NCBI GenBank assembly: GCA_013239625.1
Contig: MU053629.1
Location: 3,003,567 to 3,067,566, forward strand
Origin: Lama guanicoe
Lineage: Eukaryota
DNA length: 64,000 nucleotides
Direction: 5' to 3'
The notes under the pieces were generated by a model. That model saw only the letters and a program-made list of their open reading frames with translations. It did not search any database and was not told the origin of the DNA. The first letter of the stretch is position 1, and each line of letters starts with the position of its first letter. Made by a program: the position numbers and the translations under genes. Shown here in pieces: positions 24,201-27,200 of the stretch.

Positions 24201-27200
24201 TTCAAGCAAGTAGAGAAGTCATCACTCCGCGCGAAGGAAGCTGGCATCTGCGACAGCACTTACTGTGGGCGTTCCAGAGGATGTACAAGGGCTGTCCCGG
24301 ATCCTGATGCAATTTCATATTGTCCCACAACATCTGGATTAAAACATATTTACTATCTTCAGACATACAGTGGCGAGGAATCTGTGTTGAAGAATAAACC
24401 AACATTCATTAATGATCCTTATATGACAATGTTTTGTAAATATTTTATAAAAATCCTTACAGATATTTTGTAGGGTATGTGTGTGCAAGAGAGAAAAGAG
24501 AAGAGAAAATGACTGATGTGCATGCATTTTACAACCTACTGAAGGAAGACGGGCTGAGGTGAGAAGCCAGTGAGCCTCTAAATTAGCAGATTTAACCAAG
24601 TACTGGGATGAGTGAGGAAGGGAACCAGGGAGGGCTAATCTTGACCAGTTTACGATTATGGCTCCACAGAAAGAGGAACCCGGGAGCCCCATTCTACATC
24701 AGTTCAAGCCACCCCCCTGAAGCGCTAGGCTCGCTTGTGAAGGAGGCAGGAGACATGGGTGGGGCCGATTCACAGACTCTACTCTAAGAGTCATTTAGTT
24801 TATACTTTTGACTCTATAACAAAAACTCAAGCCCATTTTGTGTCAATTTTATAAGAAGTCCAAAAAATACGACTTTCTCTTACTGCTAGACTGTGGAAAG
24901 AAAAATTCCTTGCAACTGAAATAATTTTATTGATTCAGATGGTTATTAAAAAATATTTAGCATAAAAATTACTTTTTGTCATTAGGGCTATGCAAACATT
25001 ACAATAGTGTCAGTAGCACTGGCTTTTAGTTCATTTTTACTCTCATACCTTTGTTTTTTTCTTTTTTCTTTTTTGGGGGGTGGGTAATTAGATTTATTTA
25101 TTTCTTTGATGGAGGTACTAGGGATTGAGCCCAGGACCCCATGCATGCCAAGCACACACATTACCGCTTGAGCTATGCCCTCCCCACTACTCTCATACCT
25201 TTGAATACTTGTTACAATGTTCAGAAGAGAGAATCAATCCAGGTAAATTACTGGGTAAGTCAAGGCGTCTAAAATACCACACCAGGTTCCAAAAAACAAT
25301 TGGATGATGGTCCACAAAATCTGCCACTGTTATTGCATGATCGCCTTCATTTTCCAATAAGCTTTCAAGCTCCTTCCACACCACTAAAGGACTAAGATAC
25401 GGAACAGTGATAGGATCTGGACTTGGGAGGTGCCATTCTAACCCTAAAGAATCCTGTTGAGTAAACAAAAACCACAAATGGCAATTACAAGACTGATGAT
25501 ACTAAATGATTAAAAAACATTCCTGTCAATGAGTTCCAAGTAAGTAAAAATGTAATTGTATCATGCAACGAGAGACTCTGCTCAACAATAATAAAAATTG
25601 AAACTAAGAGGCTGTTTAGCACAAGGGGAACGACGTCTTAGGTAAATTATCAATGTCCAAATTGTAAAAACAACAACAACAACAACAAAACACCAAAATA
25701 CATACTGTGGCTCCTTGTAAAGTAGCTGGCAGGCTGCCTGTAGGAATGATCTTCTGCCCTCCAGTGTCCTCCTTATCCAAGGGGCCGTAAGAGCTAACAC
25801 TCCTGGCCATTGGAAATATCGGACATTTTGACATAGCCGTTTTTGATCTGTCAGCAGGGATCTGAATACTTTGTGAACATGTATTTTCCAGAAGTTTAGA
25901 TTTGCTTGGGCATTGAAAAAAGAAGAAAAGCATATCACTGTCTAGATTTACTTTATTTTGTCTAGCACAGAGAACTTCTCTCTAGAATCAGAGCTAGGCA
26001 CAGCCAAGTAAAACAAAGGAAAGATGCTACCCGGGCTTCGGCTGGGAAACAGGATTTAGTTTACAGTAGTCTAGTCATGTTCAATTTCCTTTCTATCCAG
26101 TGAACTTTAAATATTCAAGAGTCACTCATTTTTATTCAAAACATTTAGCAGACAGCTTTTCATACTGCAGGAACCACAACAGGGCCAGAGGCTACAAAGC
26201 AGAAACCATCGGCACCTATTCCTTCAAGAGTCAGAGCTAGTGGGAGACAGTCAGAGAAAGGGCTAGCGGACCTATGATGGAGGAAGGTGCACACACGGCT
26301 CTGCAGTTCTGCAGCCTAAGCATATGCATGATCAAACAGGGCACCCGCCTGCCAGTACTAAGCAGGCGTTTTCCTTTTCACATTCAGTTACCACCGTGGC
26401 TTCATCTGCCCAGCTATGTGCAGCGTGCTTGGCACTTCTCCAAACAGGAGTGCATTTCTGTATTTGTTTTAAGCAAAGACTTACTTATATTAGGCTTACT
26501 GTATAAGTCTTAGCTTAATTTTACAGTTCCTCTATCAGTTCCAGATGTTTTCTCAGGCTATTAAATATTCCAAGGTAGAAAATTAAATATTCCAAAGTAG
26601 AAGTAAGTTAGTCTGACTTGATTCCTCAGGAGTAGAAATAGGAGAAAGATGTTCATTATGAACTTCAAGTGTTCTACAGAATTTTTACCTTTAAAATAAT
26701 GGCACGCATTATCATATATGAATTATATAGCTAAAACTTTGGGGATTCATAAAGCAGAAACTGTTAACTGTTTAAAAATTTAGGTCATTAGAATTTTAAG
26801 ACTGTTTTAAAGCAATAAGAATTTAAGATTATGAATCTCTTATATACAAAAATTTAAACCTTAAAATGGTCAGCTAATTTTTCTGTCGTTACTGGAAACA
26901 CGTGCAACATATGTTGTTAAAATACAGTTCCACATAATCATAATCACCTATTTAGATCAAAAGTCCGCTGAACAGAGACAACAGATTTGTCAAGATCAGA
27001 GGCTGATGCTGAGATACAAGACGGCCTCGTCTGACTTGAAAAGGACGGAAGATGCACATTTTCTGTAGATGGGCTTGACTTCAAAAAGTATCTGTAAGGG
27101 GAATCAAAGGAGCTTTGTGAGAAAGGAGATATTCTAGGAAACATGATCCTTAAACACGAAGGGAAAAAAGCATAAATCATTACCTTCCAGGGCGTCTTAA

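Follow-up and report, generated by a model that had tools for sequence, protein, structure and literature searches.

The camelid DENND4A gene carries the 5' splice site of one of its conserved coding exons twice, as two identical copies with a short interspersed element (SINE) between them. The duplicated donor is a real feature of the gene. Judged from the sequence and from the analogous case of human F7, the downstream copy is probably a tolerated, nearly silent pseudo-donor, and its rare products would be cleared by nonsense-mediated decay (NMD). The analysis covers a 64-kb stretch of DNA, here called the window.

DENND4A lies on the minus strand, where about 22 of its exons were located with tblastn. 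The exon under study (25199..25453, minus strand) has 255 nt or 85 codons and phase 0 at both ends, so that it can be skipped in frame. The stretch 25453-25199 translates into 85 residues with no stop, 98-100% identical to mammalian DENND4A in a protein search (best 120 of 2070 matches), which bears out the gene name proposed in an earlier, sequence-only reading of this DNA. The camelid lineage named there also stands: the large exon at 37898-36795 shares 98% identity with three Camelus proteins, against at most 93% with the remainder among the 120 matches listed. The DNA probably belongs to a camelid other than Camelus. The exon upstream of the studied one (25706..25918, minus strand, 5' end approximate) is 92% identical to a dromedary protein, and the intron separating the two is about 252 nt long. 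In 119 of the 120 listed orthologs the studied exon is followed next by IPRH or IPRQ, which identifies the site after 25199 as the authentic donor and places the next acceptor at 24381. This acceptor, at the start of the next exon (24264..24381, minus strand), is shared by both donors; the intron leading to it measures 817 nt from the authentic donor (donor 1) and 667 nt from the duplicated one (donor 2). Downstream of the studied exon, tblastn located four coding exons and one optional microexon of 27 nt.

The two donors are contained in a direct repeat of 16 nt, 100% identical between its copies at 25038-25053 and 25188-25203, with a spacing of 150 nt. It is the sole direct-repeat family in the region 24500-25800, and a repeat of any 16-mer arose in one of 2000 shuffles of this 1.3-kb region. 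On the minus strand the repeat reads CAAAG|GTATGAGAGTA, that is, the five terminal bases of the exon and then 11 bases of the intron, exactly as the sequence-only reading had it. The 5' copy of the putative target site duplication (TSD; 25188..25203, minus strand) holds donor 1, after 25199, and the 3' copy (25038..25053, minus strand) holds donor 2, after 25049. Both donors read AAG|GTATGA and show no difference from -5 to +11; the claim of two identical donors exactly 150 nt apart with a SINE between them is correct. The 9-mer AAGGTATGA has two minus-strand sites in the 64-kb window, which are donors 1 and 2 only. The sequence they share is a middling one, as 12 of 21 DENND4A donors score higher. 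Among the 11 loci returned by a metagenome scan, L001 alone is a close ortholog with flanks. Its exon is identical at 206 of 255 positions and its donor has the same position; its intron does not align, and at this distance the empty site cannot be recognised.

The element between the copies is a tRNA-derived SINE of 134 bp (25054..25187, minus strand), sense to DENND4A and a member of a multi-copy family. It consists of a tRNA-like head (25182-25110), an AT-rich linker, a C-run and an A-rich tail. The head matches positions 1-71 of the Rfam tRNA model with 25.1 bits (E 0.0057), short of the gathering score of 29. Six other copies are present in the window, five found by blastn and one by self-comparison, with 77-86% identity by blastn. 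They lie near 9519-9641, 34945-35046, 40309-40393, 44197-44293, 54369-54498 and 57399-57495, and four have recognisable TSDs. Within DENND4A, two copies (the studied one included) are in sense and four in antisense orientation. A match of the element to SNORD75 (E 0.24) was set aside as chance. With its tRNA-related head, interspersed copies, A-rich tail and flanking direct repeat, the insertion has the anatomy of a SINE, as had been proposed, and the same anatomy of repeat, head and tail indicates that the 16-bp repeat is its TSD. The left edge of the insertion is TT|CAAAG, which we take to resemble a LINE-1 endonuclease target; LINE-1 machinery probably inserted the element. An old tRNA-SINE would have inserted in sense across the exon end, and a staggered nick would have copied the donor. 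The family may be vic-1, which SINEBase names as a simple SINE of camels (PMC3531059). The two share a simple tRNA-like structure, an A-rich tail and a camelid genome; this is a lead at the level of the name. The studied SINE is not described in the available part of a survey of camelid transposable elements (PMC8605555).

The insertion appears to be old. The head of the studied SINE departs from the majority of the six other copies in 13 of 77 columns, and the others do so in 8-12 of 77, a rough measure that uses six copies and does not exclude CpG sites. That an old insertion borders an exon so strongly conserved in mammals suggests that the insertion is tolerated. The TSD is identical at 16 of 16 positions although the head is about 17% diverged, which could be taken as a sign that donor 2 has been kept for use. 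This identity, however, falls within the range of the control TSDs, which were found in four of the six other copies (15/16, 16/17, 16/18 and 10/10; none in the other two) by a best-match search that inflates their identity. By a hand calculation, the chance of a 16/16 TSD is about 0.34 at 4 mismatches per 61 bases. Near-perfect TSDs are usual in this SINE family, and the intact copy at donor 2 therefore does not imply selection.

Use of donor 2 would extend the exon by 150 nt to 405 nt. The added sequence opens with GTA TGA and translates as Val-stop, followed by five further in-frame stops, so the premature termination codon (PTC) claimed earlier is present. This in-frame TGA (25193..25195, minus strand) would be reached on any exon extension, whether by donor 2, retention or intronic cleavage. 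From this stop to the donor-2 junction there are 144 nt, and a further 4-5 junctions lie downstream, which agrees with the NMD geometry that had been anticipated. A PTC elicits NMD when a junction lies more than 50-55 nt beyond it, and this rule predicts NMD for the donor-2 product. About 160-169 residues of the C-terminus would be lost. In known poison exons and alternative splicing coupled to NMD (AS-NMD), an alternative donor adds a PTC with junctions downstream; DENND4A matches this arrangement in geometry, and it is purely by geometry that the predicted product would belong among poison isoforms. No protein ending at the premature stop was found in the protein searches or the cluster look-up. 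The corresponding C-terminus, YSKV, occurs in 0 of 195 fetched DENND4A-like proteins, a count that is uninformative for an NMD target.

Several features of the region between the donors point to continued use of donor 1. Four G-runs (25185-82, 25180-78, 25140-37 and 25132-30) and one TGCATG (25145-40) lie within 25130..25185 on the minus strand, and G-runs are absent from the 150 nt following donor 2. A G-run promotes use of a donor that precedes it and acts as a silencer when it lies inside an exon; TP53 intron 6 is an example in which such runs keep splicing at a weak native donor despite a strong cryptic competitor (PMC12062376). In 293T cells, the intron-proximal member of a pair of competing donors was suppressed when TGCATG stood between the two (PMC1877881). 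Human F7 IVS7 has 4-8 downstream copies identical to its first donor; they are able to function but remain silent as long as that most upstream donor, the only one used, is intact (PMC1557585). Donor-like decoys are also common in DENND4A itself: by a crude U1-match score, an equal or better intronic GT is found within 300 nt at 6 of 17 other donors of the gene. The donors were picked automatically from tblastn ends, a set that one short exon never entered; 17 of 21 were kept after the test donor, two doubtful picks and one donor near the gene end had been dropped. A first decoy count, 12 of 21, was discarded because acceptor sites and the test donor itself had raised it.

It is proposed that splicing stays on donor 1 because this donor is encountered first, keeps the exon enhancers and the 255-nt exon, and would be backed by the G-runs of the SINE. 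Donor 2 looks functional but is probably near-silent, in which case it would act like an F7-type pseudo-donor, and its rare products with a premature stop would go to NMD. The allele may have persisted through the lack of any fitness cost of such products. The balance tips towards a neutral duplication, given the age of the insertion, the TSDs of the control copies, the G-runs that separate the two donors and the silent copies in F7.

That donor 2 instead competes appreciably, giving a PTC isoform whose degradation reduces or controls the dosage of DENND4A in camelids, is unlikely. Several observations are nevertheless in its favour, apart from the position of the stop and of the junctions after it. 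Donor 2 is identical to donor 1 and retains the whole ancestral intron context downstream. Its predicted structure is open: it is unpaired in the minimum free energy fold, and its predicted accessibility is 0.083, that of donor 1 being 0.060 and the median 0.018. Masking of a donor by structure was considered separately and rejected, as the element folds no better than shuffles (z -0.36). A short upstream intron, such as the one of about 252 nt here, relaxes exon-size limits, and the A/G-rich tail just upstream of donor 2 may serve as an enhancer. When an enhancer lies between two competing donors, the proximal donor is favoured (PMC1877881). Second donor copies are used in the 6-16 and CBS genes, as cited in the F7 paper; the results from globin duplication constructs, taken from the same source, conflict, and the proximal copy won in some of them (PMC1557585). 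The TGCATG could provide an Rbfox handle for tissue control. Against this reading stand the placement of the G-runs and of the TGCATG between the donors, the silent downstream donors of F7 and the ordinary degree of TSD identity.

A quite improbable alternative is that the real effect of the SINE is additional in-frame skipping of the 255-nt exon, with a loss of 85 residues and no NMD, or retention of the 817-nt intron. SINEs are depleted less than 100 bp from exons, which places the studied SINE in a sensitive zone; of 23 Alus tested in this zone, 5 changed the splicing pattern, mostly by promoting skipping (PMC6326789). Both dromedary models that were fetched (P0124 and P0125) join the upstream exon directly to the downstream exon, in frame. 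A model from the naked mole-rat (P0154), however, shows an identical skip, and the aye-aye and mandrill models omit the studied exon together with the upstream exon. Among the 120 proteins found without regard to the studied exon, the exon is missing and the next exon kept in seven, and five of the seven are not camelid. Each dromedary model forms a cluster of one and has other oddities; moreover, this insertion was observed in the window, and the dromedary is represented here by protein models. The ordinary camelid proteins probably sit in a cluster of 1164 members; an ordinary full-length camelid DENND4A protein was not found in three protein searches and the cluster look-up. The dromedary exon skip is a weak lead and probably an annotation effect.

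It would be a long shot that a single retrotransposition produced a complete camelid-specific switch, in which the TSD gave a donor and a stop, the SINE gave G-runs and an Rbfox-type TGCATG, and selection kept the result as a means of restraining DENND4A through NMD in a tissue-regulated way. That the SINE provides an intronic poly(A) site, so that a stable transcript would end inside it and the protein would be short of its last 160-169 residues or so, is highly improbable: two overlapping AATAAA hexamers do lie in sense orientation in the linker, at 25102 and 25098 (25093..25102, minus strand), and transposable elements reportedly supply poly(A) sites, but AATAAA is a family trait found in five of the six other SINE copies, the sequence downstream of it is C- and A-rich and without a U/GU-rich element, two U1 sites flank it and U1 suppresses nearby poly(A) sites, and the genomic A-tail would mimic such transcript ends through internal priming.

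Both components of the arrangement have precedents: in canine merle the TSD of a SINE contains a splice site, and in F7 identical donors lie downstream. As described in the available text of the F7 report, IVS7 resembles DENND4A in having an exact copy of the authentic donor downstream in the intron and one shared acceptor, and differs in that the copies belong to a 37-bp VNTR with 4-8 copies, whereas DENND4A has one copy, derived from an apparent retrotransposon TSD, 150 nt away (PMC1557585). The silence of the copies was demonstrated in F7, whereas that of donor 2 is a prediction. The merle SINE in PMEL likewise sits at the boundary of an exon and an intron, and the splice site falls within its 15-bp TSD (PMC7349775, from the available text). 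It is, however, on the acceptor side, antisense, young and polymorphic, and causes aberrant splicing through a cryptic acceptor inside the SINE in a manner dependent on tail length; the SINE of DENND4A is on the donor side, sense, apparently old and of no known effect. Polymorphic Alus less than 100 bp from exons share the position in the near-exon depletion zone but are primate, 7SL-derived elements that mostly cause skipping, and the available part of that report does not mention TSD-duplicated donors (PMC6326789). A literature search covering few subscription journals found no paper on the DENND4A locus and, partly by titles, none on TSD-duplicated donors. If donor 2 is silent, as is likely, the locus is a natural case of identical donors 150 nt apart and a data point on donor choice. 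If it is used and regulated, it would show that a TSD by itself, without help from later mutations, is enough to give a conserved gene an AS-NMD switch. The TSD route, if true, differs from ordinary SINE exonization and could be screened for across mammalian genomes.

Some further features were observed. Past the same donor in L001, at a distance of 12 nt, there is a G6 run (1767-1772), roughly where the SINE puts its first G-run; the match may be chance, and the camelid sequence after donor 2 has no such run. The 27-nt DENND4A microexon is in frame at 24141-24115 (minus strand), and L001 shares 94% identity over a 69-nt stretch around it, compared with 80% for the adjoining coding exons. The microexon is the likely explanation for tails of 160 versus 169 residues among DENND4A orthologs. 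On the plus strand, an open frame at 7766-8710 encodes acidic E/G/D repeats (direct repeat 7892-8188) with a hydrophobic stretch at its end, and presumably resembles the acidic loop exon of SLC24A1/NCKX1.
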